From positions 1 to 53,469 of the forward strand of contig DATLDH010000141.1 of the NCBI GenBank assembly GCA_035526015.1: a stretch of 53,469 nt of DNA. The letters are read 5' to 3'. Shown in pieces: positions 11,927-41,822 of this stretch. Origin of the DNA: Acidimicrobiales bacterium (GTDB lineage Bacteria; Actinomycetota; Acidimicrobiia; Acidimicrobiales; DATLDH01). A model generated the notes under the pieces. It was given only the letters and a program-made list of their open reading frames with translations. It did no database searches and was not told where the DNA came from. How positions within the stretch are numbered: position 1 is the first letter of the stretch; each line of letters begins with the position of its first letter. The position numbers were made by a program, and so were the translations under genes.

Positions 11927-12567
11927 CCGATCGCCGTCCACTGCGGGTCGGCGGCGCCGACCCGCTGCTCGATCCGCCGGAAGGGTTGCCGCCGGCGGTG
12001 CGGCAGCGGCTCCTCGGCCTCGACACCGCGTGGGGGCAGAGCGTGTTGTGGACCGTCGTGTGGATCGGCCTCGCCCTCGGCGTCGCCACCTTCCTCGCCA
12101 AGGGGGCGAACGGGCCGGCCGACCCGTCGCCGCAGCCCGAGCGCGCCTCGGCCCGCGTGCGCGGCTTCGGCGAGGCGGCCTTCTCCATCCAGCCCGAGGG
12201 GCAGCCGGCGACTGAGCCGGGTTGCGCCCTCACCGCGGACGAGCCCAGGACCTGGCAGCAGGGGATGATGGGCCGCCGCGACCTGGCCGGCTACGACGCC
12301 ATGGTGTTCCGGTTCCGGGCGCCCAGTGATCAGCCGTTCTTCAACCGCAACGTCCCTGTCGCACTGTCGATCGCGTGGTTCGACCTGGCGGGGCGCTTCG
12401 TGTCTTCGACCGACATGCCGGCCTGCGAGGACCGCGAGGGTTGCCCCCTCTACCACCCGACCGGCCCATACCGGTACGCCGTCGAGACCCTGCAGGGCGG
12501 TCTCACCGCACTCGGCGCGGGCCCCGGGACGGTGCTCGCAGTGGGAGGGCCATGTACCGGGCGCTGA
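11923..12567 (+). CDS. membrane-anchored DUF192 domain protein
   Basis: GTG overlaps the panB stop (GTGA). One TM segment (VLWTVVWIGLALGVATFLA) is followed by QGMMGRRDLAGYDAMVFRF...FFNRNVPVALSIAWFD...CPLY...YAVE, which is DUF192-like. Confidence 0.75.
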   Translation: MTDRRPLRVGGADPLLDPPEGLPPAVRQRLLGLDTAWGQSVLWTVVWIGLALGVATFLAKGANGPADPSPQPERASARVRGFGEAAFSIQPEGQPATEPGCALTADEPRTWQQGMMGRRDLAGYDAMVFRFRAPSDQPFFNRNVPVALSIAWFDLAGRFVSSTDMPACEDREGCPLYHPTGPYRYAVETLQGGLTALGAGPGTVLAVGGPCTGR

Positions 12568-15068
12568 AGGTCGCCCTCGTCCTCACGACACTCGTGACGC
12601 TCTGGCCCGGTGTCGCCGATGCGGCGGTTCCCGACACGTTCACCTTCGGCGGCGCCGGGTTCGGCCACGGTGTGGGCATGAGCCAGTGGGGCGCATACGG
12701 CCAGGCCCAGGAGGGGCGCAGCGCGGCACAGATCCTCGGTCACTACTACCCCGGCACGTCCCTCACCGGCGTCGACGAGAACGTCGGCATCCGCGTGAAC
12801 CTGATCGATGCCGCGTCGGCCCAGGCGCGCGGGGAGGCGCTCGCCGCCGGAGGGGGAGCGCTGCGCGCCGTCGCCGGCGCCCAGACCCTCGACGCCGCCG
12901 GGCAGACGTTGTCGCTGTCCGTCGTGGGCGACCAGGTCCAGGTGCGGCGCGGCGCGGCGACCATCGGTGGCTCCGAGGTGCGCCTCCAGTGGTCGGACGG
13001 GCCGACGCTGCTGAACCTGGCCGGCCCCACCGAGTCGCTGTCGGGCGCCGGCCACCGCTACCGCTACGGCGAGGTCGACGTCGCCGTCGTCGACGGCCGC
13101 CTCCAGGCCGTGCTGCAGCTCAGCCTGCACGACCACTACCTGCGCGGCATCGCCGAGATGCCGTCGTCGTGGCCGGCCGCCGCCCTGGAGTCCCAGGTCG
13201 TGGCGGCCCGCACCTACGCGCTCCGCAAGTTCCGCGCCGGGGTCCGCCCGTCGTGCCGGTGCCACGTGCTCGACACCACCGCCGACCAGGTCTACGCCGG
13301 CTGGGCGAAGGAGTCCGACGCCGGTGGGGCCCGATGGGTGGCCGCGGTGCAGGCGACGTCGCCGACGCCGACGACCGGGCTCACGCTGACCTACATGGGC
13401 GAGCCGGCGTCGGCCAACTACTTCTCGTCGTCCGCCGGGCGCACCGAGGCCAACATCGACGGTTTCGGCGGCACCACGCAGTTCCCGTATCTCCGCCCCG
13501 TCGACGACCACTGGAGCATGACGTCGGGGAACCCGTTCTCGGCGTGGAGCTTCACCCGCAGCCAGGCCGCCGTCGCCGCCGCCTTCGGGCTGCCCGACGT
13601 CGAGCAGGTCGACCTGTCCCGTCGCACGGCCGGCGGAGCGGTGCGCACGGCGACGGCGGTGTCGTCCGCCGGCCAGCGCGCCACCATCACCGGTTCGCAG
13701 TTCCGCGGCCGGCTCGAGCTGCCCTCGCGCTGGATCGGGCCCGCCGTGGTGCGGGTCGCCGGCGCCGACCGCTACGCCACCAGCGTCGCCATCGGCAGGC
13801 TGGCGGCGGTCTCGTCGACCACCGTCGTCATCGCATCGGGCGAGTCGTCCCACCTGGTCGACGGCCTCGTCGCCGCGCCGCTGGCCCGCGACCGCGGCGC
13901 GCCGCTCCTGCTGGCGACGGTGTCCGGGCTGCCCCCACCGGTCGGTGACGACGTGACGCGCCGCCGCGCCACCACCGCGCTCCTCGTCGGCGGCTTCGGC
14001 GCCCTCGGTCCCGGCGTCGAGCAGGCGCTGCGGGCCCGCGGGGTGGCCACGGTGCGGCGTATCTCGGGCCCGACGCGCTTCGACACCGCGGCGGCCGTGG
14101 CCGCCGAGATGGGTGCGCCGCGCCCGCGCGCGGTCGTCGCCTCCGGCGAGACGGCGCACCTGGTCGACGCCCTGGCCGCCGGCGGTCCCGCCGCCGGCGC
14201 CGGGCTGCCCGTCCTCCTCACCGCCGCCCGGGAGCTACCCGCGGCCACCCGCCAGGCCATCGGTGAGCTCGGCGTCACCGACACCGTCGTCGCCGGCGGG
14301 CCGGCCGCCATCGCCGACGCCGTCACCGCGCAGCTGCCGCGACCGGTGCGCGTCTCGGGGGCCGATCGTTTCGCCACTGCCGTCGCCGTGGCCCGGCACT
14401 TCGGCTCGGGAGCGGTGAGCGGCGCCGGGTTGGTGGCGGCGTCGGGCCGTGACACCCACCTGGTCGACGCCCTGCCCGGTGGCGCCCTCGGCCTGCAGAC
14501 CGTGCTCGTCGCCCCGACCGGGCCCGATCCCTCGACTGCGGCGTTCGTCGCCGGCCGCCAGTCGCCGACGCTGTTCGTGCTGGGCGGGACGGCGGCGGTC
14601 TCCGACGCCGCCGTGCGGGGCCTGCAGGCGGCCGGGCAGCCCACGGGCCGCTTCCCGTCGCGGATCGCCGGCTTCGACGAGGTGGGCTTCATCAGCCAGC
14701 CGCTCACCGGTGTCGCCGTGGTCGGCTGTGCCGCCCTGGCCGACACGCCGCCGCGCCGGGCCCAGGGCCTCACCGGCCGCCAGGACCTGGCCGGTTACGA
14801 CGGCATGGTGTTCGCGTTCGCCACCGACACCGACGCCGCCTTCTACATGCGCAACGTGCCCATCCCGTTGTCGATCGCCTGGTTCGGCGCCGACGGCAGC
14901 TGGGTGGGGGCCGCCGACATGGCCCCGTGCGGCGATCGCGACGACTGCCCGTTGTACCGCTCGCCGGTGCCGTACCGCACGGCCCTGGAGACGGCGGGCG
15001 GCGATCTCGGGAGGCTGGGGGTGGGCTCGGGCTCGTTCCTCCTGGCCGGCGGCTCCTGCCCCGGCTGA
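12552..15068 (+). CDS. secreted SpoIID/LytB domain protein with three CWB2-type cell-wall-binding repeats and a C-terminal DUF192 domain
   Basis: ATG 12552 gives the signal peptide MYRALKVALVLTTLVTLWPGVADA. Contains GFGHGVGMSQWGAYG and YLRGIAEMPSSWPAAALESQVVAARTYAL (SpoIID). Repeats are GADRYATSVAI, GPTRFDTAAAVA and GADRFATAVAVA, each followed by ASGE..HLVDAL. The C-terminal 130 aa are paralogous to 11923..12567. Confidence 0.85.
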   Translation: MYRALKVALVLTTLVTLWPGVADAAVPDTFTFGGAGFGHGVGMSQWGAYGQAQEGRSAAQILGHYYPGTSLTGVDENVGIRVNLIDAASAQARGEALAAGGGALRAVAGAQTLDAAGQTLSLSVVGDQVQVRRGAATIGGSEVRLQWSDGPTLLNLAGPTESLSGAGHRYRYGEVDVAVVDGRLQAVLQLSLHDHYLRGIAEMPSSWPAAALESQVVAARTYALRKFRAGVRPSCRCHVLDTTADQVYAGWAKESDAGGARWVAAVQATSPTPTTGLTLTYMGEPASANYFSSSAGRTEANIDGFGGTTQFPYLRPVDDHWSMTSGNPFSAWSFTRSQAAVAAAFGLPDVEQVDLSRRTAGGAVRTATAVSSAGQRATITGSQFRGRLELPSRWIGPAVVRVAGADRYATSVAIGRLAAVSSTTVVIASGESSHLVDGLVAAPLARDRGAPLLLATVSGLPPPVGDDVTRRRATTALLVGGFGALGPGVEQALRARGVATVRRISGPTRFDTAAAVAAEMGAPRPRAVVASGETAHLVDALAAGGPAAGAGLPVLLTAARELPAATRQAIGELGVTDTVVAGGPAAIADAVTAQLPRPVRVSGADRFATAVAVARHFGSGAVSGAGLVAASGRDTHLVDALPGGALGLQTVLVAPTGPDPSTAAFVAGRQSPTLFVLGGTAAVSDAAVRGLQAAGQPTGRFPSRIAGFDEVGFISQPLTGVAVVGCAALADTPPRRAQGLTGRQDLAGYDGMVFAFATDTDAAFYMRNVPIPLSIAWFGADGSWVGAADMAPCGDRDDCPLYRSPVPYRTALETAGGDLGRLGVGSGSFLLAGGSCPG

Positions 15069-15140
15069 CCCCCAGAAAAACCCAGCCCGGTCACGCTTGG
15101 TGCCGCGAACCGGTTGGTATCGGGTGTGAGGATGGCAGGT

Positions 15141-17291
15141 ATGCATTTCAGGCGATTCGTCGCGGGCGCGGTCGCGTCGCTCACGGTCGTTGCCGGCGCG
15201 GTCTTCTCCGCCCCGCCCGCCGCCGCCGCCGTCCCCGAGACCTTCACCTTCACCGGCTCGGGCTTCGGTCACGGAGTGGGGATGAGCCAGTACGGCGCCT
15301 TCGGCCAGGCCCAGGAGGGCCGCACCGCGGCACAGATCCTCCAGCACTACTACTCCGGGGTCACGGTCGGGGCGTTCGACGACGCGGTCGCACTGCGGGT
15401 CAACCTGCTCGACGCCGCCACGTCGGTGCAGATGCGGGGCGAGTCCCTCGCCACCGGCGGCGGTGCCATCAAGGTTGTAGCCGACGCCGCCACGATCGAC
15501 GCCGGCGACAAGGAGGCCGTCACCTTCGGCATCGCCGGCACCAACGTCACCGCCTCCAAGGCCGGCGGCGCGCCGATCTCGGCTGCCGTGGTCAAGGTCC
15601 AGTGGTCGGCGGGGCCCACGTTGCTCGACGTCATCGGCGGTACGGAGAGCTTCGACGGGCCCAGCCATCGCTACCGCTACGGCGAGGTCGACGTCGCCGT
15701 CGTGGCCGGCAAGCTGGTGGTGGTCAACACGCTCTCGCTGCACCAGGAGTACCTGCGCGGCATCGCCGAGGTGCCGTCGTCATGGCCGGCCGAGGCCCTC
15801 AAGGCCCAGGTGATCGCCGCCCGCACCTATGCGCTCTACAAGTTCCAGGCCGGCGAGCGGGCAGCCTGCCGCTGCCATGTGTACGACAGCATCTCCGACC
15901 AGGTCTTCGCCGGATGGTCGAAGGAGTCCGAGCCGACCTTCGGGGCCAAGTGGGTCGACGCAGTGGCGGCGACGTCGCCGTCGACGTCGACGGGGATCAC
16001 CGTGCTGTCGGGCGGTGAGCCGATCGGCGCCTTCTACTACTCCTCCTCGGGTGGCAAGACCGAGTCCAACACCGACGGCTTCGGCTCCTCCACGCCGTTC
16101 AGCTACCTCAAGAGCGTCGACGACCGGTGGAGCCTGCTCGTCCAGAACCCGTTCGCCAGCTGGACGTTCACCCGCACCCAGGCCGACGTGCTCGAGGCCT
16201 TCAACCGTGACCTGGCCGCCGACAAGAAGCTGCGTGACGTCGAGAGTCTCGACCTGAGCGCCCGCACCGCGGGCGGCTCGCTCAAGACGGCCGTCGCCAC
16301 CGCCGCGGACGGCACCAGGGCCAGCATCGGCGGCAACACCTTCCGCTCCCGCCTCGAGTTGCCGGCCCGGTGGATCGGCACCCCGGTCGTGCGCGTGTCC
16401 GGCCCCGACAGGTACAGCACCGGCGTCGCCATCGGCCGGCAGGCGGCCTCCGCGTCCGGCGGCACCGTCGTGGTCGTGTCCGGCGAGAACGCCCACCTCG
16501 TCGACGGCCTGGTGGCCGCCCCGTTGGCCCGGCTGCGCCAGGCCCCGTTGCTGCTGTCGGAGGGCAAGGGCCTGCCCCAGGCGGTGGCCGACGAGGTGGC
16601 GAGACGCAAGCCCCAGACTGCGATCCTCGTGGGCGGCCTCGGCGCGCTGAGCGCCCAGGTCGAGGACGACCTCGAGGCCAGGGGCGTGACCACCGTGCGG
16701 CGCCTGGCCGGCGCCGACCGCTACGAGACTGGCCTGCTCGTCGCCCGTGACATGCAGGCCCCCCGCACCCAGGTCGTGATCGCGTCCGGCGAGGCCGGGC
16801 ACCTCGTCGATGCCCTGGCGGCCGGCGGCCCGGCGGCGGCCACCGCCCGCCCGGTGCTCCTGGTGGCCCGCGACCAGGTGCCGTTCCCTACCCGTCAGGC
16901 GCTCACCGAGATGGGCACGACCTCCACCGTCGTGGCCGGCGGTGAGGCCGCGGTGTCCGACGCCACCATGTCCCAGCTGCCCAGCCCACGCCGCCTGGCC
17001 GGGGACAGCCGGTACTCGACGGCCACGGCCATCGCCGATTTCTTCGCCTCGACGGTCGGGACCAACCGTGTCGTGGTTGCCTCCGGCGCCGACGGGGCCC
17101 TGGTCGATGCCCTGGCCGGCGGCGCCCTCGCCTCACTGACGGTGCTGACCGCCCCCGAGGCGCTGACCGCCGTGACCAGGACGTGGCTGACGTCGGGCGC
17201 CGGCGCGCCGGCCGGCCTCGTGCACGTCCTCGGCGGTCCGGCCGCAGTCGGCAACGCCACGTTCGACAGCCTGAGGTCCGCCGTCTACTAG
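15141..17291 (+). CDS. secreted SpoIID/LytB domain protein with CWB2-type repeats (paralogue, no DUF192)
   Basis: ORF 15114..17291. ATG 15141 lies 9 nt after GAGG. Signal peptide MHFRRFVAGAVASLTVVAGAVFSAPPAAA. Contains GFGHGVGMSQYGAFG and YLRGIAEVPSSWPAEALKAQVIAARTYAL, with repeats GPDRYSTGVAI, GADRYETGLLVA and GDSRYSTATAIA. Confidence 0.85.
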   Translation: MHFRRFVAGAVASLTVVAGAVFSAPPAAAAVPETFTFTGSGFGHGVGMSQYGAFGQAQEGRTAAQILQHYYSGVTVGAFDDAVALRVNLLDAATSVQMRGESLATGGGAIKVVADAATIDAGDKEAVTFGIAGTNVTASKAGGAPISAAVVKVQWSAGPTLLDVIGGTESFDGPSHRYRYGEVDVAVVAGKLVVVNTLSLHQEYLRGIAEVPSSWPAEALKAQVIAARTYALYKFQAGERAACRCHVYDSISDQVFAGWSKESEPTFGAKWVDAVAATSPSTSTGITVLSGGEPIGAFYYSSSGGKTESNTDGFGSSTPFSYLKSVDDRWSLLVQNPFASWTFTRTQADVLEAFNRDLAADKKLRDVESLDLSARTAGGSLKTAVATAADGTRASIGGNTFRSRLELPARWIGTPVVRVSGPDRYSTGVAIGRQAASASGGTVVVVSGENAHLVDGLVAAPLARLRQAPLLLSEGKGLPQAVADEVARRKPQTAILVGGLGALSAQVEDDLEARGVTTVRRLAGADRYETGLLVARDMQAPRTQVVIASGEAGHLVDALAAGGPAAATARPVLLVARDQVPFPTRQALTEMGTTSTVVAGGEAAVSDATMSQLPSPRRLAGDSRYSTATAIADFFASTVGTNRVVVASGADGALVDALAGGALASLTVLTAPEALTAVTRTWLTSGAGAPAGLVHVLGGPAAVGNATFDSLRSAVY

Positions 17292-25888: not shown

Positions 25889-26944
25889 GTGGCGGCGTCC
25901 TACGCTCGCGACGTGACACTCACCGTGCTCGACCAGGGCCGCGTCACGGTGGTCGACGGGTCGGTGGGCGGCGGCCGCGTGATGGTCGACGACGTCTCGT
26001 TGACGCGGGCCACGGGCTTCGTGCGCAAGCCCGAGGGGTTGTGTCGGGGCGAGGTCTGCATCCCCGTGCGGCCGGGGTCGGGCCTCGACGACAACGCCGT
26101 CGACCTCGTCGCCGTGGCTTCTGTGCTGGGTCGGCCCATCGCCGTCGACGAGGATGCCGGCGCCGTCTACCTCGGGCCGGCCGCCACCGAGCGCGCCGCC
26201 GTCCTGCGGTCGGGTCGGGCCCCCGACTTCACGCTGCCCGACCTCGACGGGCGCCTGCACTCTCTGTCGGACCTGCTCGGCCGCAAGGTCGTCCTCGCCG
26301 TCTACGGCTCGTGGTGAGGGTGCGTCGACGACCTGCCGGTCTGGCAGGCTTTGCACGCTGAGCTCGAGCACCTCGGGTTCTCCATCGTCACCGTCGCGCT
26401 CGAGAAGGATCCCGAAGACGTCAGGCCCTTCATCGAGCGGGCGGCGCCCACCCATCCGAGCCTCATCGACACCGACTGGGTGGTCGCCGATCTGTACAAC
26501 GCGGTGAACGTCCCCAGCGTGGTGTGGATCGACGAGGAGGGCCGGATCGTGCGGCCCAACGACGCCGTGTTCGTCACCGGGACGTGGACGCGGGCTCACG
26601 GCGTCGACCACGAGCGTCACCTCCGGCGCATCCGCCGCTGGGCGACGACCGGCGAGGGTGCCATGACCGCCGAGGAGGCGGCCCGCCGCCAGCCCGTGCC
26701 CGACGCCGACCACCAGCAGGCGCGCGCCGAGTTCGGCCTGGCCCAGTGGCTGGCCCGCAACGGCCACGCCGACCGCGCCGAGGCCCACTTCGCGCGCGCC
26801 GGCGAGCTGGCGCCCCACGACTTCACCATCCGCCGCGGCTCGCTGCCCATCCGCGGCATCGACTCCCGTGGCGACGAGTTCCGCGAGATGGTCGTCGACT
26901 GGGTGGGGAAGGGCAACCCCTACTACGAGCTCCTGGAGGACTGA
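25889..26944 (+). CDS. thioredoxin-fold (ResA/TlpA-like redoxin) protein with an in-frame TGA at the active-site position; candidate selenoprotein, alternatively a nonsense pseudogene
   Basis: ORFs 25889..26317 and 26351..26944 share one frame. Read-through gives ...APDFTLPDLDGRLHSLSDLLGRKVVLAVYGSW-TGA-GCVDDLPVWQALHAELEHLGFSIVTVALEKDPEDV...VPSVVWIDEEGRIV. A SECIS-like hairpin follows the TGA. Confidence 0.55.
26322..26358 (+). promoter_or_regulatory. SECIS-like stem-loop immediately 3' of TGA 26315-26317
   Basis: The apical stem CCTGCC (26332-26337) pairs with GGCAGG (26343-26348) around the loop GGTCT (26338-26342). The lower stem GCGT (26322-26325) pairs with ACGC (26355-26358), with an imperfect middle section. 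The loop starts 21 nt after the TGA. Confidence 0.45.
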
Positions 26945-26945
26945 C

Positions 26946-27797
26946 CTACGCCGGGGCGGGCGCAGGGACCTTTCGGCACAGCATCTGGCCGGTGCCGGTC
27001 GCCACGAGCCTGCGGTCGGCCGACCACAGGCGGCCGTTCCAGTGCAGGAGGCCGTCGGCGCCCAGCGGGGAGTAGCCGTCGCACAGGAGCCATTCGCTCT
27101 GCGGCTGCGGGTCGGTGAAGGCGACGTAGAGGTCGAGACTCGGCGCGATGAACCGCATGGGCTGCTCGACGTGCTGGCGCGACGCCGACGGCCAGCTCTG
27201 CACGTCGACGAGGATCAACGAGCGGCACGCGTCGATCCACGGGTCGTCGAAGGTGGCGGTCGGGATGAACTTGTGCCAGCCCCGCCACACCGGCGACAGC
27301 GGCCCTGGCGGCGGCCAGTCGCGACGGAAGTCGAGTGGCTTGGCGTCGAGGTTCAGCCAGAACGGGAAGTTGGGACCGGCCGCCAGCTCCTCTTCGGTCA
27401 GCAGCTCGGTGATGCTCGGCAGGCCGTCGGGGCCGGCCACGTCCGGCGGCTCGCTGACGTCGTGGGCCAGGCCCTCGACGTCGCCCACGCTCCACACCAT
27501 GGCCTCGAGGATGGGGCGGTCGCCCTGCCGCATGTGCACGCGGTGGGCGGCGGCCGTGCGCGCCATGCGCAGCTCGGTGACCTCCAGCTCGACGGTGTCG
27601 AAGGCGGCCACGCCCATGTAGGTGCACTGGAAGCTGGCCGGCCGGTGGAAGGGGCTCACGGCGCCGGCGGCGCGTAGTGCCACCGAGGCGACATAGCCGC
27701 CCATCGGCCCCCAGATCTCCCACTCCTGGCTGAGCTTCGCGGTGAAGTGCCGCTCGTCGACTGCTGTGACCGCGGTGTCCAGCCCCAGGTCTCCCAT
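26946..27797 (-). CDS. acyl-CoA thioesterase II-like (double hotdog) protein
   Basis: 283 aa. Contains WGPMGGYVASVALRAAG... Overall resemblance to TesB-like thioesterases. Confidence 0.8.
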   Translation of the reverse strand: MGDLGLDTAVTAVDERHFTAKLSQEWEIWGPMGGYVASVALRAAGAVSPFHRPASFQCTYMGVAAFDTVELEVTELRMARTAAAHRVHMRQGDRPILEAMVWSVGDVEGLAHDVSEPPDVAGPDGLPSITELLTEEELAAGPNFPFWLNLDAKPLDFRRDWPPPGPLSPVWRGWHKFIPTATFDDPWIDACRSLILVDVQSWPSASRQHVEQPMRFIAPSLDLYVAFTDPQPQSEWLLCDGYSPLGADGLLHWNGRLWSADRRLVATGTGQMLCRKVPAPAPA

Positions 27798-27885
27798 GCG
27801 CCGAAACTAGGCCCGGGCAGGGCCGGGAGGCCGCCCAATTCCGACACACGCCCGTAACAAAAGGAAACGTCGTGTTCACCCGGGC

Positions 27886-28428
27886 ATGACGGTCGCGAAA
27901 CACTGGCCGCGTACGTTCGCCTCGATGACGATCGATCACGTCGCCGTGCTGCGGTGGCCCGAGGAGAGGGCCAGCGTCGAACGGCTGCGGGCCAGCGGCA
28001 CGCCCCGCCTCCTCCTCGTGGCCCCCGACGCCGAGGCACCCGTCGCCACGGATTGCGACGAGGACTGGATCCGCCTACCGGCGGTCGATGACGACGTACG
28101 CGCCCGGACGAATGCCCTGGCGGCCAAGGCGGCGCGCCACAGCCCGCGGCCCGAGGTGAAGGGCGACGGGCGCCTCGCCTACCGGGGACGCTGGGTGGCG
28201 CTGTCGCAGACCGAGGAGGCGATCGCCCGGCTCCTGGCCGACCAGCTCGGCGAGGTCGTGGGGCGCGACGTGCTGGCCACCGACTGGGGGACCAGGCCGC
28301 CGAGTGCCAACGCCATGCGCGTGCACATCACGCGCTTGCGCCGACGGGTCGGCCCCCTCGGGCTCGTGGTCCGGTCGGTGCACGGTCGCGGCTACGTGAT
28401 GGAGCCGGCCGAGCCCACCGACTCCTGA
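27886..28428 (+). CDS. OmpR/PhoB-type winged-helix DNA-binding protein with a truncated, apparently non-phosphorylatable receiver remnant
   Basis: The C terminus LSQTEEAIARLLADQLGEVVGRDVL...MRVHITRLRRRVGPLGLVVRSVHGRGYVME is a Trans_reg_C pattern. The N-terminal ~75 aa retain only LLLVAPD and DWIRLP-like receiver elements. Alternative start ATG 27925. Confidence 0.75.
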   Translation: MTVAKHWPRTFASMTIDHVAVLRWPEERASVERLRASGTPRLLLVAPDAEAPVATDCDEDWIRLPAVDDDVRARTNALAAKAARHSPRPEVKGDGRLAYRGRWVALSQTEEAIARLLADQLGEVVGRDVLATDWGTRPPSANAMRVHITRLRRRVGPLGLVVRSVHGRGYVMEPAEPTDS

Positions 28429-28441
28429 CAGAGCGCCACCC

Positions 28442-31084
28442 ATGCTGCTCGACCTCCTTCTCGTCCTCGCCGCGGCCAAGATCGCGGCCGAGGTCGCCGA
28501 GCGGCTGCGCCTCCCGGCGGTGCTGGCCGAGATCCTGGCCGGCGTCGTGCTGGGCCCATCGGTGCTCGGCGCCGTCGGCTCCGGCGAGGTCCTCCGCTTC
28601 CTCGCCGAGCTCGGGGTCGTGCTCCTGCTGCTCGAGGTCGGCCTGGAGATGGACCTCGGTGAGCTCGGCGCGGTGGGGCGGGCGTCGGTCCTGGTGGCCG
28701 TTGCCGGCGTGGCCCTGCCCTTCGTGGGTGGCTTCGTCGTGGCCTCGGCCCTGGGGGAGGCGGTGCACCCCGCCATCTTCGTGGCCGGGGCGCTGACGGC
28801 GACGAGCGTCGGCATCACGGCGCGCGTCTTCGCCGATCTCCGGGCCCTGTCGTCGGTCGAGGCCCGCACCGTGCTCGGGGCGGCGGTGGCCGACGACGTG
28901 CTCGGCCTCGTGATCCTCACCGTGGTGGTGCGTGTCGTATCGGCGGGCAACGTCTCGGTCGCCAGCGTGGGCGTGCTCATCGCCGGAGCCGTGGCCTTCC
29001 TCGTGGTCGCCGGCGGCGTGGGCGTGCAGTTCGCGCCGAGGATCTTCGCGACGATCGACCGCCACTCCCGGTCGACGGGCACCCTGCTGGCTGCCGCCCT
29101 CGTCTTCACCTTCGGCCTCGGCGAGCTGGCCGGCGTGGCCAAGCTGGCCCCGATCATCGGCGCCTTCGTCGCCGGCATCTCGCTGGCGAAAGCGAAGCAG
29201 GCCGAGCGCGTCCGCCGCGATCTCAACCCCGTCGGCCAGGTGCTCATCCCGGTGTTCTTCGTGCAGATCGGCCTCGACGCCGATCTCGCCAGCCTCATGC
29301 GGCCGTCGGTGGTTGCTCTCGCCGGCGCGCTCCTCGTCGTGGCCGTGGTCGGAAAGGTGGCGTCTGCGGCTGCCGCCGTCGGCTCGCCCGGCGACCGGTG
29401 GCTCATCGGCCTCGGCATGCTCCCCCGCGGTGAGGTCGGGCTGATCTTCGCCGGCCTCGGCCTGCGCGAAGGGATCCTCGGCGGCGACCTCTACGCCGCG
29501 CTGCTCCTCGTCATCCTCGCCACGACCCTCGCCACCCCGCCGCTGCTCAAGTGGCGGCTGCGTGCCGTGTCGGCCGCCCGCCGTGCCGCGCCGGGCCGGG
29601 CGCGCCCCGAGGGTGGCTGGTTCGATATCGCCGACGGCGAGGTCGAGCTGCGCGGTCGTCCCGGCCTTGACGTCGCGCCGATGCTGGCGTTGGAGGCGGC
29701 CCGCCGCCTGGCAAGCGACACCCGGCCGGGGTCGAACCTCCTCGACTGGTTCGCCCATCTCCCCCGCGACGCAGAACAGCCCCGGTGGGACGACACCACG
29801 CGCCGCGAGCTGTTCTCGCTCCTGCGCGTCGGGACGGCGCGGTCGTGGCGCTTCCTCGAGACCACGGGGATGCTCGACCGCGTCCTCCCCGAGCTGGCCG
29901 AGACCGTGCGGCGCCGGCGGGACGACGCGTCCGAGCTCGATCCCGCCCAGGTGCTGCGCTGGACCACGGTCGAGCAGGTCCACGCGCTGGCCGGCCACCC
30001 ACGGTTCCAGAACCTCGAGCACCCGGACTGGGTCTTCCTTGCCGCCCTCGTGCTCGACGTGGCCGGCAGCAACGAGCCGCCCGTGGAGGCGGCGCGCCAG
30101 ATCGTCGGGCGCCTCGGCCTGGGGGAGGAGGCCGAGGCCGAGATCGTGCTGCTGATCGACGAGCGCGGGCTCCTCCGGGCCGCGTCGGCCCGCCCCGACG
30201 GGTTGACCGAGGAACGCGTGCTGCCCCTCGCCCTCCATCTCGGGCGGCCCGAGCGCGTCCGGGCCATGCATCTGCTGACCCTTGCCCAGAACGACCTCCC
30301 GACCTGGCACCGCGACCGGCTGGAGGAGCTCGTCGAGCGCATCGGTCGCCTGCTCGCCCACGCCGACGTCACCGGTCCCGAGGCGAGGACCCTCGCCGAG
30401 CAGCGGCGCGCCGAGGCCGAGCAGCTCGCCACGTCGGCCGCCGTGCGCGAGCGGCTGGCCCACGCCCCCCGACCATGGCTGCTCGGGCTGCCGAGCGCCG
30501 CCCTCGTGCGCCAGGCCTCCCTGCTGGAGCCCGCCCCGACCGGCTCGATGATCCGCGTCGTCGTGACCGGCCCGCGGGTGGAGATCGGGTGCCGCGACCG
30601 CCGTGGGCTGCTGGCGGCGGTGACCGACGCGCTCACGAGGGCGCGGTTGACGATCACCGAGGCGACGACGGCGACGTGGGCTGACGGCGCCGTGGTCCTG
30701 GCCTTCGTCGTCGACGGCCCCGACGTGGATGCCCATGCGCTCACGGACCGGATCCGGAGATCCCTCGCCGCCCCACTCGCGGCCGAGCCCGTGCCCGACG
30801 CCGTCGTCGAGTTCGATGACGAGGCGTCGCCGTGGTACACGATCGCCGACGTGCACGCCACGGATCGTCCCGGCTTGCTGCACGCCATCACCGCCGCCAT
30901 CGCCGCCGCCGGCGCATCCATCCATTCGGCGCGCGTCGCCACCGACGCGGGCATCGCCCACGACCGGTTCGAGCTCACCGACCGGCGCGGCGCCAAGCTC
31001 TCGCCGTCGGTGCAGGACGCCGTCCGTGCCGCGTTGGTGACGGGCGTGGTGCCCAGGCGAAGGCCGTTCGCCGGCCGTCGGTAG
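28442..31084 (+). CDS. CPA2 (Kef-type) cation:proton antiporter fused to a GlnD-like central region (degenerate HD) and two ACT domains
   Basis: 880 aa. The N-terminal ~380 aa (MLLDLLLVLAAAKIAAEVAERLRLPAVLAEILAGVVLGPSVLG...) form a Na_H_Exchanger pattern. The middle section WRFLETTGMLDRVLPELAE resembles GlnD. The C terminus has two DRxGLL ACT motifs (CRDRRGLLAAVTDAL and ATDRPGLLHAITAAI). Confidence 0.85.
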   Translation: MLLDLLLVLAAAKIAAEVAERLRLPAVLAEILAGVVLGPSVLGAVGSGEVLRFLAELGVVLLLLEVGLEMDLGELGAVGRASVLVAVAGVALPFVGGFVVASALGEAVHPAIFVAGALTATSVGITARVFADLRALSSVEARTVLGAAVADDVLGLVILTVVVRVVSAGNVSVASVGVLIAGAVAFLVVAGGVGVQFAPRIFATIDRHSRSTGTLLAAALVFTFGLGELAGVAKLAPIIGAFVAGISLAKAKQAERVRRDLNPVGQVLIPVFFVQIGLDADLASLMRPSVVALAGALLVVAVVGKVASAAAAVGSPGDRWLIGLGMLPRGEVGLIFAGLGLREGILGGDLYAALLLVILATTLATPPLLKWRLRAVSAARRAAPGRARPEGGWFDIADGEVELRGRPGLDVAPMLALEAARRLASDTRPGSNLLDWFAHLPRDAEQPRWDDTTRRELFSLLRVGTARSWRFLETTGMLDRVLPELAETVRRRRDDASELDPAQVLRWTTVEQVHALAGHPRFQNLEHPDWVFLAALVLDVAGSNEPPVEAARQIVGRLGLGEEAEAEIVLLIDERGLLRAASARPDGLTEERVLPLALHLGRPERVRAMHLLTLAQNDLPTWHRDRLEELVERIGRLLAHADVTGPEARTLAEQRRAEAEQLATSAAVRERLAHAPRPWLLGLPSAALVRQASLLEPAPTGSMIRVVVTGPRVEIGCRDRRGLLAAVTDALTRARLTITEATTATWADGAVVLAFVVDGPDVDAHALTDRIRRSLAAPLAAEPVPDAVVEFDDEASPWYTIADVHATDRPGLLHAITAAIAAAGASIHSARVATDAGIAHDRFELTDRRGAKLSPSVQDAVRAALVTGVVPRRRPFAGRR

Positions 31085-31088
31085 GTCA

Positions 31089-31126
31089 TTCATTCACCGG
31101 AAACACTTCGGGCACGGTTCGGAAAC
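31089..31126 (+). promoter_or_regulatory. GlnR-box-like operator upstream of amt
   Basis: TTCAT-tcaccg-GAAAC-acttcg-GGCAC-ggttcg-GAAAC. The two GAAAC b-sites lie 22 nt apart, and a-sites precede each by 6 nt. This matches the actinobacterial gTnAc-n6-GaAAc-n6-GtnAC-n6-GAAAc architecture. It ends 71 nt upstream of the amt start. Confidence 0.5.
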
Positions 31127-31196
31127 AACCGGTCCGTAGGTTGACCGACGAGGCCAACGACGCCCTCTCCCATCCACACCGTTCCTGGAGGACACC

Positions 31197-32765
31197 TTGC
31201 AGAGACACCTCACGCGCCTGGCGCGCGCGTCGGCGGTGGTGGTCCCGGCGTTGCTCTTCGCGACGACGGCCATCGCCGCAGCCGACCCGACCGGCTCCAA
31301 CATCGAGGGGCCGGAATCACTCGACAAGGTCGGCATCGGCCTCAACCTGATGTGGATCATCGTGGGGGCGGTCCTCGTCGTGTTCATGCAGGCCGGCTTC
31401 GCCCTGGTGGAGACGGGCTTCTGCCGTGCCAAGCACGCCGCCCACGTCGTCAGCACCAACTTCGCCATCTTCGGGCTCGGCTTCGTCGGGTTCTTCCTGT
31501 GCGGCTTCGCGTTCATGTTCGGCGGCTTCAGCTACCCGGGCGTCTTCGGTATGGACCAGCCCATCGGGGAGGCCCTGCTCGGCTCCGGCAACTGGGTCTT
31601 CCTCTGGAAGGGCGGGTTCGCCCTCTCCGGCGACAAGGCCTACGACGTCGCGGTGGCTGCGTTCTTCCTCTACATGGTCGCGTTCATGGACACCGTCGCC
31701 ACCATCCCCACCGGCGCCATGGCCGAGCGGTGGAAGTGGCGCTCGTTCGTCGGCTGGGGCCTGTTCTGCGGCGCCGTCTACTACCCGCTGTTCGGGGCCT
31801 GGACGTGGGGTGGCGGTTGGCTCGCCAAGCTCGGCATCTCCAAGGATCTCGGCTTCGGCTACGTCGACTTCGCCGGTTCCGGTGTGGTCCACGCCGTCGG
31901 AGGCATCGCCGCCCTCGCCGGCGCGGTCGTGCTCGGGCCCCGCATCGGCAAGTATGGGCCCGACGGCAAGGCCCGCTCGATCCCGGGCCACCACATCCCG
32001 ATGGCCATGCTGGGCTGCTTCATCCTCCTGTTCGGCTGGTTCGGGTTCAACGCTGCGTCGACCTTCGCCGCCACCGACCTCCGGTTCACCATCGTGGCCA
32101 CCAACACGGCCATCGCCGCCGCCTTCGGGGCAACCATGGCCATGTTCTGGGTCATGCGCCGGACAGGGAAGCCGGACCCCGGGATGATGGTCAACGGCAT
32201 GCTCGCCGGCCTGGTGGCCATCACGGCGCCGTGCGCCTTCGTGCAGCCGTGGGCGGCCGCCGTGATCGGCACGATCTCCGGCGTCACGGTGATCGAGGCG
32301 GCGTGGATCATCGAGCGCAAGATGAAGGTCGACGACCCCGTCGGCGCCATCGCCGTCCACCTCGTGCACGGCATCTTCGGCGTGCTCTGTGTCGGGATCT
32401 TCTCCGACGGCAGTTACGGCCAGATGTGGAACGGCACCGACCACGGCGACCAGGGCGTCACCGGCATCCTGTACGGCAGTCTCGGTTGGGGCCAGCTGCT
32501 GGTCCAGGCCATCGGGGCCGTCACCATCATCGTGGTCATCGGCGGCATCGCCTACGCCTTCTTCAGCATCCAGAACAAGCTGACCAAGGGCGGGATCCGC
32601 CCGTCGGCCGAGGACGAGATCGGCGGCATGGACCTGCCCGAGATGGGCGCTCTCGCCTATCCGGAGTTCGAGTTCGCCATCGAGGAGTCCGACCCCGAGA
32701 TCGGGCACCGGCCGCTGGTGGGCTCGTCCCGCTCGTCCGGTCCTGACGAGGACGCCTACTCCTAG
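31197..32765 (+). CDS. amt: ammonium transporter (Amt family)
   Basis: 522 aa. TTG start after GGAGGA. Signal-like N terminus. Contains MWIIVGAVLVVFMQAGFALVETG, DFAGSGVVH and HLVHGIFG, the Amt signature regions. Confidence 0.93.
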   Translation: MQRHLTRLARASAVVVPALLFATTAIAAADPTGSNIEGPESLDKVGIGLNLMWIIVGAVLVVFMQAGFALVETGFCRAKHAAHVVSTNFAIFGLGFVGFFLCGFAFMFGGFSYPGVFGMDQPIGEALLGSGNWVFLWKGGFALSGDKAYDVAVAAFFLYMVAFMDTVATIPTGAMAERWKWRSFVGWGLFCGAVYYPLFGAWTWGGGWLAKLGISKDLGFGYVDFAGSGVVHAVGGIAALAGAVVLGPRIGKYGPDGKARSIPGHHIPMAMLGCFILLFGWFGFNAASTFAATDLRFTIVATNTAIAAAFGATMAMFWVMRRTGKPDPGMMVNGMLAGLVAITAPCAFVQPWAAAVIGTISGVTVIEAAWIIERKMKVDDPVGAIAVHLVHGIFGVLCVGIFSDGSYGQMWNGTDHGDQGVTGILYGSLGWGQLLVQAIGAVTIIVVIGGIAYAFFSIQNKLTKGGIRPSAEDEIGGMDLPEMGALAYPEFEFAIEESDPEIGHRPLVGSSRSSGPDEDAYS

Positions 32766-32788
32766 CCACCTCCATCGACCTCGCACCA

Positions 32789-32818
32789 GGAGCCGGCGGC
32801 ATTCGTGCCGCCGGCTCC
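32789..32818 (+). terminator. perfect 13-bp stem hairpin after amt
   Basis: GGAGCCGGCGGCA (32789-32801), loop TTCG, then TGCCGCCGGCTCC (32806-32818). It starts 24 nt after the amt stop. There is no T-tract, as is common in high-GC actinobacteria. Confidence 0.5.
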
Positions 32819-32838
32819 GGCGCGTAAGGTCGCGCGTC

Positions 32839-33039
32839 GTGAAGGTACGCATCGACCAGGACCGCTGCGAGGGCCACGGGCGCTGCTACGCGCTGGCCCC
32901 ACAGGTGATCGAGCCCGACGAGATCGGCAACGGCAGGGAGATCGGTGACGGCGACGTGCCGCCGGAGCACGAGGTCGCGGTGCGCAAGGCGGCCGCCAAC
33001 TGTCCCGAGCTGGCCGTGATCATCGAGGAGGGCGCCTGA
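32839..33039 (+). CDS. small ferredoxin (P450-associated type)
   Basis: 66 aa. Contains CEGHGRC...C(P) cluster ligands. The stop overlaps the P450 start. Confidence 0.85.
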   Translation: MKVRIDQDRCEGHGRCYALAPQVIEPDEIGNGREIGDGDVPPEHEVAVRKAAANCPELAVIIEEGA

Positions 33040-34238
33040 TGGGCCATCACCCGCCGGTCGAGGACTGGGCCACCGACTTCGACCACACCGACGACGCCTG
33101 GGCGGCCGACCCGTTCCCCATCTGGGACGACCTCCGCGAGACGTGCCCGATCGCCCACTCCGACCGCTATGGCGGCGTGTGGTTGCCGACGCGTCACGAA
33201 GATGTCTCGGAGATCGCGTACGACACCGAGCACTTCACGTCGCGCAGCATCGTCGTCACCGAGTGGCCGCCGCCCCGCGAGCTCGAGCCCCAGGGCATCG
33301 CCCCCCCGATCTCTTCCGACCCGCCGTTCCACCGCGGTGCCCGCCGCCTGCTCCTCGAGCCGTTCGCGCCAAAGGCCATCGACCTGATCGAGCCGGCGAC
33401 CCGCGAGTACTGCGAGGAGCTGGTGGCCGCCATGGCGGGCCGCGACGTCGTCGACGCCGCCGAGGAGTATGCCCAGCACATCCCGGTGCGTGTCATCGCC
33501 AAGATGCTCGGGTTCCCCGAGGAGGATGCCGACCGGTTCCGCGGCTTCGTCGAGCACGTCCTGGCCGAGGTCTCCCTGCCGCTCGAGCAGCGCTTCGAGG
33601 GGATGCAGCTGCTGTTCGAGTACCTGCGCGAGCAGGTGCAGGACCACATCGACAACCCCCGCGACGACCTGACGACCTATCTCCTGAACGCCGAGATGGA
33701 CGGTCGGCCCATCGACGTCGGCCACGTGGGCGGCACCATCGCCCTCCTTCTCATCGCCGGCATCGACACGACGTGGAGCGCCATCGGCGCGTCGATCTGG
33801 CACCTGGCCGGCCATCCGGACGATCTGGCCCGCCTCGTGGCCGAGCCCGGTCTCCTGCCCACCGCCATGGAGGAGTTCCTGCGGGCCTACGCACCGGTGA
33901 CGATGGCGCGCCTGGTCAAGGAGGACATGGAGTGGAAGGGCTGCCCCATGAAGGCCGACGAGTGGATCCTGCTGTCGTTCCCGTCGGCCAATCGCGACCC
34001 GGAGGCCTTCGAGCGGGCCGATGAGTTCGTCATCGACCGCGAGATCAACCGTCACGCCGCTTTCGGCCTCGGCATCCACCGCTGCGCCGGGTCACATTTG
34101 GCCCGCATGGAGCTGCGGGTCGCCCTCGAGGTGTTCCTGAAGGCGTTCCCCCGGTTCACCCTGGCCGACCCCGCTGCGGTCACCTGGTCGGGCGGTCAGG
34201 TCCGCGGGCCGCGCAAGCTCCCGCTCCGTATCGGCTGA
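33039..34238 (+). CDS. cytochrome P450
   Basis: 399 aa. Heme loop FGLGIHRCAGSHLAR, EFLR (ExxR), and the I-helix AGIDTT. Confidence 0.93.
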   Translation: MGHHPPVEDWATDFDHTDDAWAADPFPIWDDLRETCPIAHSDRYGGVWLPTRHEDVSEIAYDTEHFTSRSIVVTEWPPPRELEPQGIAPPISSDPPFHRGARRLLLEPFAPKAIDLIEPATREYCEELVAAMAGRDVVDAAEEYAQHIPVRVIAKMLGFPEEDADRFRGFVEHVLAEVSLPLEQRFEGMQLLFEYLREQVQDHIDNPRDDLTTYLLNAEMDGRPIDVGHVGGTIALLLIAGIDTTWSAIGASIWHLAGHPDDLARLVAEPGLLPTAMEEFLRAYAPVTMARLVKEDMEWKGCPMKADEWILLSFPSANRDPEAFERADEFVIDREINRHAAFGLGIHRCAGSHLARMELRVALEVFLKAFPRFTLADPAAVTWSGGQVRGPRKLPLRIG

Positions 34239-41751: not shown

Positions 41752-41822
41752 AGCGGGCGACGAGAATCGAACTCGCGTTCTCAGCTTGGGAAGCTGATGT
41801 TCTGCCGCTGAACTACGCCCGC
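41752..41822 (-). tRNA. tRNA-Gly (anticodon CCC)
   Basis: Minus strand reads GCGGGCG-TA-GTTC-AGCGGCA-GAAC-A-TCAGC-TTCCCAA-GCTGA-GAAC-GCGAG-TTCGATT-CTCGT-CGCCCGC-T. This folds as a full 71-nt cloverleaf with a TTCGATT T-loop. CCA is not encoded. Confidence 0.9.

Follow-up and report, generated by a model that had tools for sequence, protein, structure and literature searches.

The fusion gene

The window analyzed here is a 53,469-nucleotide stretch (contig DATLDH010000141.1, positions 1 to 53,469) from an Acidimicrobiales bacterium, and our subject is one gene within it that lies beside the ammonium transporter gene amt. This open reading frame (ORF) begins with ATG, runs uninterrupted for 880 codons, and has a GC content at third codon positions (GC3) of 0.94, as is usual for genes of this 72% GC window. 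Its product is predicted to join a cation:proton antiporter of the CPA2 family to a C-terminal module derived from GlnD. The gene and the features within it are as follows.

28442-31084, plus strand: fusion gene, NapA-type CPA2 antiporter plus predicted GlnD-derived pseudo-HD/ACT/ACT module, 880 amino acids (aa)
28475-29554, plus strand: CPA2 (Na_H_Exchanger) transmembrane domain, aa 12-371; Pfam PF00999, E 1.6e-61
28892-28897, plus strand: DD ion-binding motif D151-D152, equivalent to NapA D156-D157 in the alignment to NapA
29354-29356, plus strand: K305, equivalent in the same alignment to NapA K305, the salt-bridge partner of the DD motif
29612-30526, plus strand: GlnD-like all-helical central domain (pre-HD linker and degenerate HD-like domain), aa 391-695; NCBIfam, hhalign, and AlphaFold2 (AF2)
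30053-30058, plus strand: HD dyad remnant L538-D539, equivalent to E. coli GlnD H514-D515; BLASTP, MAFFT, and hhalign agree
30554-30715, plus strand: ACT domain 1, aa ~705-758, with DRRGLL; Pfam ACT, AF2 beta-alpha-beta-beta fold
30803-31042, plus strand: ACT domain 2, aa ~788-867, with DRPGLL and the family-specific SPWYT; Pfam ACT at 804-850, AF2

A NapA-type antiporter domain

The transporter half matched PF00999 at 208.7 bits (cutoff 26.2). Among all PDB sequences its top match was Thermus thermophilus NapA (4BWZ; 228 bits, E 1.5e-66), to which residues 2-374 aligned end to end (NapA 7-380 of 394), whereas KefC reached only 60 bits. The ATSVGIT helix-break stretch is the same in both proteins, and the PRGEVGLI motif is conserved. 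D151 and D152 were invariant in 37 of 37 fusion loci (described below) and K305 was kept in 36. Near-invariance of these three residues argues that transport is under purifying selection.

In the K+-selective KefC, "QD" takes the place of "DD" and Thr is found where NapA has Val (PMC11150392). At both positions the window protein carries the NapA state, not that of KefC. Of the NCBIfam models, TIGR00932 (2a37) scored 170.1 bits, below its cutoff of 238.3 although the homology is unambiguous, while those for KefC (61 bits; cutoff 752) and KefB (51 bits; cutoff 804) were far from reached. The original prediction of a Kef-type CPA2 transporter was thus right as to CPA2. The Kef-type assignment is rejected on the NapA and KefC scores, the DD motif, and the absence of an RCK/KTN domain.

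Judged by these alignments, residues 1-372 form what is predicted to be a complete CPA2 antiporter with 13 transmembrane (TM) helices. Homology with the 13-TM topology of NapA and KefC (PMC11150392) would place its C-terminus in the cytoplasm, and similarity to NapA suggests Na+ as the transported cation.

A GlnD-derived C-terminal module

Past the transporter domain, Pfam recognized two ACT stretches (E 2e-16) in the fusion protein. It gave no match at E<=1 to NTP_transf_2 (PF01909), GlnD_UR_UTase (PF08335), HD, or TrkA_N. The origin of the region was apparent from NCBIfam, where the GlnD equivalog model TIGR01693 aligned with aa 391-866 in a single stretch (model 314-846 of 850; E 6.9e-29). 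At 100.7 bits against a cutoff of 519.4 bits, this match does not reach the level of a GlnD equivalog. The actinobacterial GlnD model NF002895 aligned over nearly the same residues (aa 397-866; model 315-774 of 782). When the ACT domains were left out, TIGR01693 was still the only NCBIfam match to aa 391-690 (E 5.4e-6; model 320-615).

Profile comparison by hhalign matched the fusion family to E. coli GlnD 409-882 with 98.0% probability and to GlnD 346-783 of the same lineage (from locus L037) with 98.4%. Both alignments remained colinear from the pre-HD linker, with its GMLDRVLPEL signature, across the HD region and the two ACT domains. On this homology, residues ~391-866 of the fusion are colinear with the C-terminal 60% of GlnD. 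The layout originally proposed, an antiporter followed by a GlnD-like part and two ACT domains, is therefore borne out by Pfam, NCBIfam, hhalign, and AF2. The domain scans it had called for returned PF00999 and ACT without PF08335 or HD, in agreement with its claim that the GlnD nucleotidyltransferase domain is missing, and its DRRGLL and DRPGLL motifs fall within the ACT domains.

Structural models were consistent with this organization. In the AF2 model of aa 381-880 (pLDDT 91.3, pTM 0.82), a helical domain precedes two beta-alpha-beta-beta-alpha-beta units; the central domain is all-helical with a pLDDT of 87.5. A PDB sequence search with the C-terminal half returned nothing useful (E 0.8 to an unrelated monooxygenase), and no solved GlnD structure turned up in that search or in the fold searches with the module.

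Loss of the catalytic site

In GlnD, the N-terminal domain provides the transferase activity and the HD domain the removing activity (PMC4285133). The Pfam nucleotidyltransferase and GlnD_UR_UTase domains are present both in E. coli GlnD and in the L037 GlnD. The latter, encoded beside a fusion and used as a control, also matches Pfam HD and ACT and keeps FHTYTVDHH and MHDLGKG.

The HD tetrad of E. coli GlnD, read off its sequence, is H471/H514-D515/D597. In the window protein the dyad has become L538-D539. Among 119 close homologues the dyad His position is occupied by L in 92, V in 19, A in 3, and H in 1; across the 37 species-level loci L, A, V, I, K, S, M, and T all occur there, with H in only four. 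The Asp position is always D or E across the family. Placement of the first HD His (E. coli H471) differed between methods: Q503 within "DPAQ" by hhalign, L505 by MAFFT, and V513/H514 by BLASTP. None of these is a conserved His in the window protein, and the hhalign column holds H in ~45% of the family.

The earlier claim that the HD motif is lost and that no activity is to be expected stands, as judged by Q503 and L538-D539. The exact site it named (RWTTVEQV) does not, as it lies a few residues downstream of Q503. Because the nucleotidyltransferase domain is absent and the HD domain decayed, GlnD catalysis is not expected in the fusion. The C-terminal half is accordingly a predicted pseudoenzyme module of GlnD origin, devoid of catalytic equipment.

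A few family members differ at this site. The HD dyad is retained in L001 (8001-10700; protein P0005), and both the first His and the dyad are retained in two Ilumatobacteraceae loci, L019 (138-2726) and L023 (1393-3984). These proteins may reflect an earlier stage of the module, in which decay had gone less far.

The ACT pair

Within the ACT domains, D719, L723, and F755 are conserved in ACT1, while P797, W798, T800, D808, D841, and F843 are invariant in ACT2, where L812 is also kept. Asp and Leu in the beta1-alpha1 loop and Phe in beta4 are therefore retained by both domains (D719/L723/F755 and D808/L812/F843). The same Asp, Leu, and Phe positions are found in GlnD, the plant protein ACR11, and the glutamine-activated Chlamydomonas amylase AMA2 (PMC11190351). 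The ACT domains of the family match ACR-type ACT models in Pfam, and the Foldseek neighbours of the pair are tandem-ACT regulators such as SerB2 and the regulatory subunits of aspartate kinases. The ligand of the ACT pair would most likely be glutamine.

Distribution of the fusion family

A protein search covering 5.8 billion proteins yielded more than 120 full-length homologues (~880-950 aa) with the same Pfam architecture and 51-67% identity to the window fusion. Those that carry a name in their source are called "cation:proton antiporter" or "KefB/ACT domain protein" and come from metagenome-assembled genomes (MAGs) of Acidimicrobiia or Acidimicrobiales. The original prediction had asked for a search for the same architecture in other genomes; a locus scan with one genome per species found it in 37 species-level loci, with the CPA2 and GlnD-like parts contiguous on one strand. 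Nearly all of these are from Acidimicrobiia (Acidimicrobiales, Ilumatobacteraceae, Microthrixaceae, and Acidimicrobiaceae). With the C-terminal 500 aa as query, an exhaustive HMMER search over 1.84 billion cluster representatives found the GlnD-like module in 184 clusters (50% identity) at E<=1e-30. The best 150 of these 184 clusters included 48 complete and 17 partial fusions.

Some homologues deviate from the full architecture. Seven (P0124, P0125, P0126, P0152, P0186, P0190, and P0270) are ~490-580 aa long, begin with Met at the module boundary, and have no CPA2 domain; in P0124 a single N-terminal hydrophobic helix takes its place. They may be stand-alone or differently anchored modules, or else metagenomic fragments or frameshifted fusions. 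In three long-contig MAG loci (L004, L028, and L035) the tblastn match to the fusion was broken into several segments, which suggests indel errors of long reads, or a pseudogene in the case of L035 (four segments, low identity).

Genomic neighbourhood

The genes and the putative operator that flank the fusion gene in the window are listed below.

27886-28428, plus strand: OmpR/PhoB-type winged helix-turn-helix (wHTH) regulator, 180 aa; Pfam Trans_reg_C at aa 104-172
31089-31126, plus strand: GlnR-box-like operator TTCAT-n6-GAAAC-n6-GGCAC-n6-GAAAC, starting 108 nucleotides (nt) upstream of the amt start codon
31197-32765, plus strand: amt, ammonium transporter, 522 aa; PF00909 E 2.7e-98, TIGR00836 E 1.9e-100

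As first proposed, the fusion gene lies directly upstream of amt, which begins 112 nt after it, and no glnB or glnK gene lies between or after them: tblastn with E. coli GlnB (E<=10) found no PII homologue in the entire 53-kb window. The sole GlnD-like tblastn match in the window was the fusion itself. To compare loci, we considered as informative the 23 that extend at least 2 kb on each side of the fusion. In 17 of these, amt was within 1.5 kb, mostly downstream, with five upstream and one divergent. Every informative locus had amt or the wHTH gene (0/23 without both).

In relatives, genes for PII are often found near the fusion. Directly adjoining glnK genes were present in L010 (in the order wHTH-glnK-fusion-amt), L015, L021, L035, and L040, and glnK was within 5.5 kb in 9 loci. 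In L037 the order fusion-amt-glnK is followed, 2 kb away on the opposite strand, by amt-glnK-glnD encoding an intact GlnD. In actinobacteria, glnD is known to occur beside amtB and glnK (PMC4285133). The original prediction placed the fusion where glnK and glnD normally accompany amt, as if in their stead. For the lineage, this replacement is rejected given the adjacent glnK genes and the canonical cluster of L037, which point instead to an addition to its PII/GlnD system.

Two loci showed other arrangements. In a Thermoanaerobaculia MAG (DASYUP010000119.1; L038, 1-3797), the gene order is glnD (3' end, with an ordinary ACT2), glnK, amt, and an unfused CPA2 gene, whose NapA-like product of 424 aa is 44% identical to the transporter half of the window protein. 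This case from outside Actinomycetota is a single hint that the association of amt with an antiporter may be older than the fusion. In L002 (10764-14128; a 53% identical relative), the fusion is followed not by amt but by hydantoinase/oxoprolinase A and B genes (PF05378/PF01968 and PF02538), a nitrogen/glutamate-related neighbour seen at this one locus.

The putative operator resembles the actinobacterial GlnR box, in which gTnAc-n6-GaAAc-n6 occurs twice to give two 22-bp boxes (PMC5826061). Exact GAAAC-n17-GAAAC, for which 0.33 occurrences are expected in 606 kb of loci, was observed 8 times, each time on the coding strand. Of the 14 sites found with a position weight matrix (PWM) built from seven sites, 11 precede amt or glnK-amt by 94-137 nt, and six of these were not part of the training set. 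The conserved pattern across Acidimicrobiia is GnAAC-n6-GAAAC-n6-GnnAC-n6-GAAAC, about 100-130 nt upstream of amt or glnK-amt. It was seen in the window and in L001, L005, L013, L017, L018, L020, L021, L026, L027, L030, L037, and L040. Its a-site is GnAAC or GCCAC, unlike the gTnAc of the GlnR box. These sites make nitrogen control of amt likely.

Upstream of the wHTH-fusion unit, the window contains only an imperfect GTAAC-n5-GAAAC. Scans of 27500-33200 found no promoter-like site for sigma-70 and one terminator-like site, which lies within amt and is no more than expected by chance. Rfam gave no riboswitch or other RNA near the operon.

The wHTH gene ends 13 nt before the fusion gene. Its product had the response regulator 7lz9 as top PDB match (aa 31-176 to 64-222 of 232). 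As the alignment starts only at about residue 64, the protein is without the N-terminal third of the receiver, the usual region of the phospho-acceptor Asp. No chain named GlnR was among its 11 PDB matches (E<=0.01). In 10 of the 23 informative loci (about 40%), a homologue is encoded no more than 700 nt from the fusion. By tblastn coordinates, the gene is 18-109 nt upstream of the fusion in L002, L004, L008, L009, L011, L028, and L039.

Proposed mechanism

Our data suggest that the fusion is a cation:proton antiporter (CPA) carrying at its C-terminus a regulatory domain of GlnD origin, a type not described before, and that such proteins are widespread in Acidimicrobiia. We give about even chances to ligand-gated allosteric control of the antiporter by this module. 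Under this model, the pseudoenzyme would keep only the sensor function of GlnD. It would read the nitrogen status of the cytoplasm, most likely as glutamine at the ACT pair, and change conformation upon binding. Since the module is attached to the final helix of the core domain, the mobile (elevator) part, antiport could be inhibited or released allosterically.

There is precedent for such control among CPA transporters, whose C-terminal cytosolic domains bring about auto-inhibition by docking on the transport module, with release by a ligand or partner. This holds for the RCK domain of KefC (PMC11150392) and likewise for RCK/CorC of YcgO, with PtsN of the nitrogen phosphotransferase system (PTS) (bioRxiv 10.64898/2026.08.14.744764). 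That an ACT sensor was re-used to gate ion transport in a nitrogen-regulated locus had been part of the original prediction. The idea is plausible, and is strengthened by amt synteny (17/23 loci) and by the GlnR-box-like operator before amt; gating by glutamine itself is what we infer.

Two rationales for such coupling can be envisaged. Under nitrogen excess, NH3 influx would alkalinise the cytoplasm, and H+-importing antiport would counter this. Alternatively, the antiporter would be shut under starvation so that loss of NH4+ or K+ is avoided.

A more specific version would make the fusion a glutamine-gated counterpart of Amt within a single polypeptide. With glutamine as the sign of nitrogen excess, the antiporter would open for efflux of NH4+ (or K+), or for H+ uptake to offset alkalinisation driven by NH3; at scarcity it would close and so retain scavenged ammonium. 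AmhT is a CPA2 protein for NH4+/K+ efflux. We regard this version as unlikely. If true, this would be the first case of direct glutamine gating in a bacterial ion transporter, and a branch of nitrogen control independent of PII would have been built from a GlnD pseudoenzyme.

Several observations weigh against a GlnD-derived nitrogen sensor that gates the antiporter. The ligand specificity of ACT domains is not readable from sequence. Pfam HD (PF01966) matches no family member, even those that keep H...HD. The best structural match of the central domain was the helical body of a class-II tRNA nucleotidyltransferase (Foldseek with the 500-aa and 261-aa models; query TM-score (TMq) 0.36-0.55, with prob 1.0 at TMq 0.47-0.55), and matches to the HD superfamily (phosphodiesterases, YpgQ, Rel) were non-significant, so that the fold search neither confirms nor refutes an HD fold. 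With Pfam HD silent and the fold search non-significant, the label "HD-like" comes from GlnD-specific homology alone. At the level of the locus, amt is missing from the neighbourhood in 5 informative loci, and the PWM scan found no comparable site upstream of the fusion gene in most loci, the operator preceding amt instead. Stand-alone modules, if real, would argue for an output other than the transporter. Finally, actinobacteria have no established physiological need that would tie Na+/H+ antiport to nitrogen status.

Alternative explanations

The module could instead be a receptor for PII (GlnK). Here the dead HD-like domain, whose counterpart in GlnD binds modified PII and strips it of UMP/AMP, would keep the ability to bind PII but not the catalysis, so that the antiporter is regulated by GlnK, modified or unmodified, or sequesters it, as in the AmtB-GlnK pair, with the ACT pair tuning the interaction. 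The HD domain is the seat of the uridylyl-removing activity of GlnD, PII is the only known GlnD substrate, and PII proteins regulate membrane transporters by direct binding (PMC4285133). Retention of Asp or Glu at the dyad in every family member, despite loss of the His, fits such a role, as do the five loci in which glnK adjoins the fusion. However, the ubiquitous pairing of glnK with amt explains this adjacency equally well, and the window and most other loci have no glnK beside the fusion. The PII-binding surface of GlnD is not defined, which precludes a comparison of its conservation. We consider a PII receptor unlikely.

The neighbouring regulator suggests another possibility, in which the fusion is mainly a transceptor: as a nitrogen sensor anchored in the membrane, it would bind the wHTH regulator and let it go again, and this regulator would control amt by way of the GlnR-like boxes, with transport as a secondary function or second input. 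The wHTH gene is close upstream both in the window and in the seven loci listed above, and a receiver-truncated regulator without its phospho-acceptor region needs a non-phosphoryl input. GlnR, the binder of gTnAc-n6-GaAAc boxes, is also of the OmpR/PhoB type (PMC10235972, PMC5826061), and boxes of this kind are found in front of amt. A transceptor would also be in keeping with the possible stand-alone or single-TM-anchored versions of the module. In contrast, 13 of the 23 informative loci have no wHTH gene near the fusion, no GlnR-named chain was among the PDB matches of the regulator, and the strict conservation of the ion-binding residues indicates that transport itself is under selection. 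This role for the fusion is, in our view, quite unlikely.

It is very unlikely that the module is still an enzyme, whether a membrane-anchored residual phosphohydrolase or one that deuridylylates or deadenylylates PII. The minority of proteins that keep the dyad, or the first His and the dyad, would fit residual activity. Against this, Q503 and L538 have taken the places of the two His in the window protein, the dyad His is missing in 118 of 119 close homologues at a hypervariable position, and Pfam HD is silent even on the HD-retaining members.

Lastly, an artefact of assembly, frameshift, or gene calling that joined an antiporter gene to a truncated glnD (the original prediction had pointed to 29550-29620) can practically be dismissed: where the tblastn match is split, as in a few long-read MAG loci, indel errors or pseudogenes are suggested, but the reading frame of the window gene is continuous with uniform GC3, residues spanning the junction are conserved, and the same continuous architecture recurs in more than 120 protein clusters, 37 independent species-level loci from many studies, and 48 full-length 50% cluster representatives, making the junction genuine.

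Other features of the window

Upstream of the regulator, two ORFs on the plus strand (25889-26317 and 26351-26944) share a frame that is interrupted by one in-frame TGA at 26315-26317. Readthrough of 25889-26944 would give a thioredoxin-fold protein of 351 aa whose redox motif reads "...AVYGSW*GCVDD...". The second ORF matches NCBIfam NF041054, "ResA-like WAxxUGC motif-containing protein" (E 4.5e-34), and the product is therefore likely a selenocysteine protein. A GC-rich 6-bp hairpin, CCUGCC-GGUCU-GGCAGG, follows ~17 nt past the UGA; its fold was not better than that of shuffled sequences (z = -0.73).

Two large tandem paralogues of 897 and 725 aa at 12375-17291 (plus strand) contain SpoIID together with three CWB2 cell-wall-binding repeats; DUF192 is present in addition in the first. 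A single tRNA gene at 41752-41822 (minus strand; 67.8 bits) was the only Rfam match in the window.

Significance and comparison with known systems

In the current view of nitrogen control in bacteria, GlnD and PII relay nearly the whole glutamine signal to its targets, or the nitrogen PTS does so in proteobacteria. The present family suggests a shortcut, in which the sensor half of GlnD, with both of its activities gone, is wired straight to an antiporter and maintained beside amt across the Acidimicrobiia. This class is abundant in soil, freshwater, and marine metagenomes. Current names for the family ("cation:proton antiporter" and "KefB") hide the sensor part. If the module binds glutamine, CPA antiporters would gain a new class of regulatory domain next to RCK and CorC, nitrogen status would be tied concretely to pH and cation homeostasis in actinobacteria, and there would be a tractable system for how the HD-ACT-ACT part of GlnD transduces glutamine binding. 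Our literature search found no description of a CPA2 or other antiporter fused to GlnD or ACT domains, and neither NCBIfam nor Pfam has a model covering the fusion family or its central domain.

Of the known transporters, T. thermophilus NapA (4BWZ, 5BZ2, 5BZ3) is a CPA2 Na+/H+ antiporter that aligns end to end over all 13 TM helices. It extends only ~14 residues past the transporter domain in the alignment, whereas the fusion has ~500 cytoplasmic residues of predicted GlnD origin after the last TM helix. The glutathione-gated K+/H+ antiporters KefC and KefB of E. coli share the principle of a CPA2 protein with a fused C-terminal cytoplasmic ligand-binding domain, which in KefC is auto-inhibiting (PMC11150392), and COG-based annotation even names the fusion family "KefB". 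However, their RCK/KTN domain is unrelated to the GlnD-derived module, and KefC has QD where the fusion has DD. A nitrogen-related precedent is the E. coli CPA1 K+/H+ antiporter YcgO, which PtsN inhibits through the cytosolic C-terminal domains of the antiporter (bioRxiv 10.64898/2026.08.14.744764). There, a separate regulator acts through RCK/CorC by way of a phosphorylation relay, while the presumed sensor of the fusion is in cis and derived from GlnD.

Among GlnD-type proteins, GlnD itself shares with the fusion a colinear linker, HD region, and pair of ACT domains, and its gene is likewise found beside amtB/glnK in actinobacteria (PMC4285133). It differs from the fusion, which is without the nucleotidyltransferase domain and PF08335, has lost the catalytic His residues, is joined to a transporter, and in L037 occurs together with a genuine GlnD. 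The closest parallel for the fate of the ACT pair is provided by ACR11 and AMA2, in which GlnD-type ACT domains detached from GlnD catalysis serve another function (PMC11190351, PMC3173338). These proteins are soluble enzymes or regulators and have only the ACT domains of GlnD, whereas the fusion also keeps the HD-like domain and has a membrane transporter as its partner.

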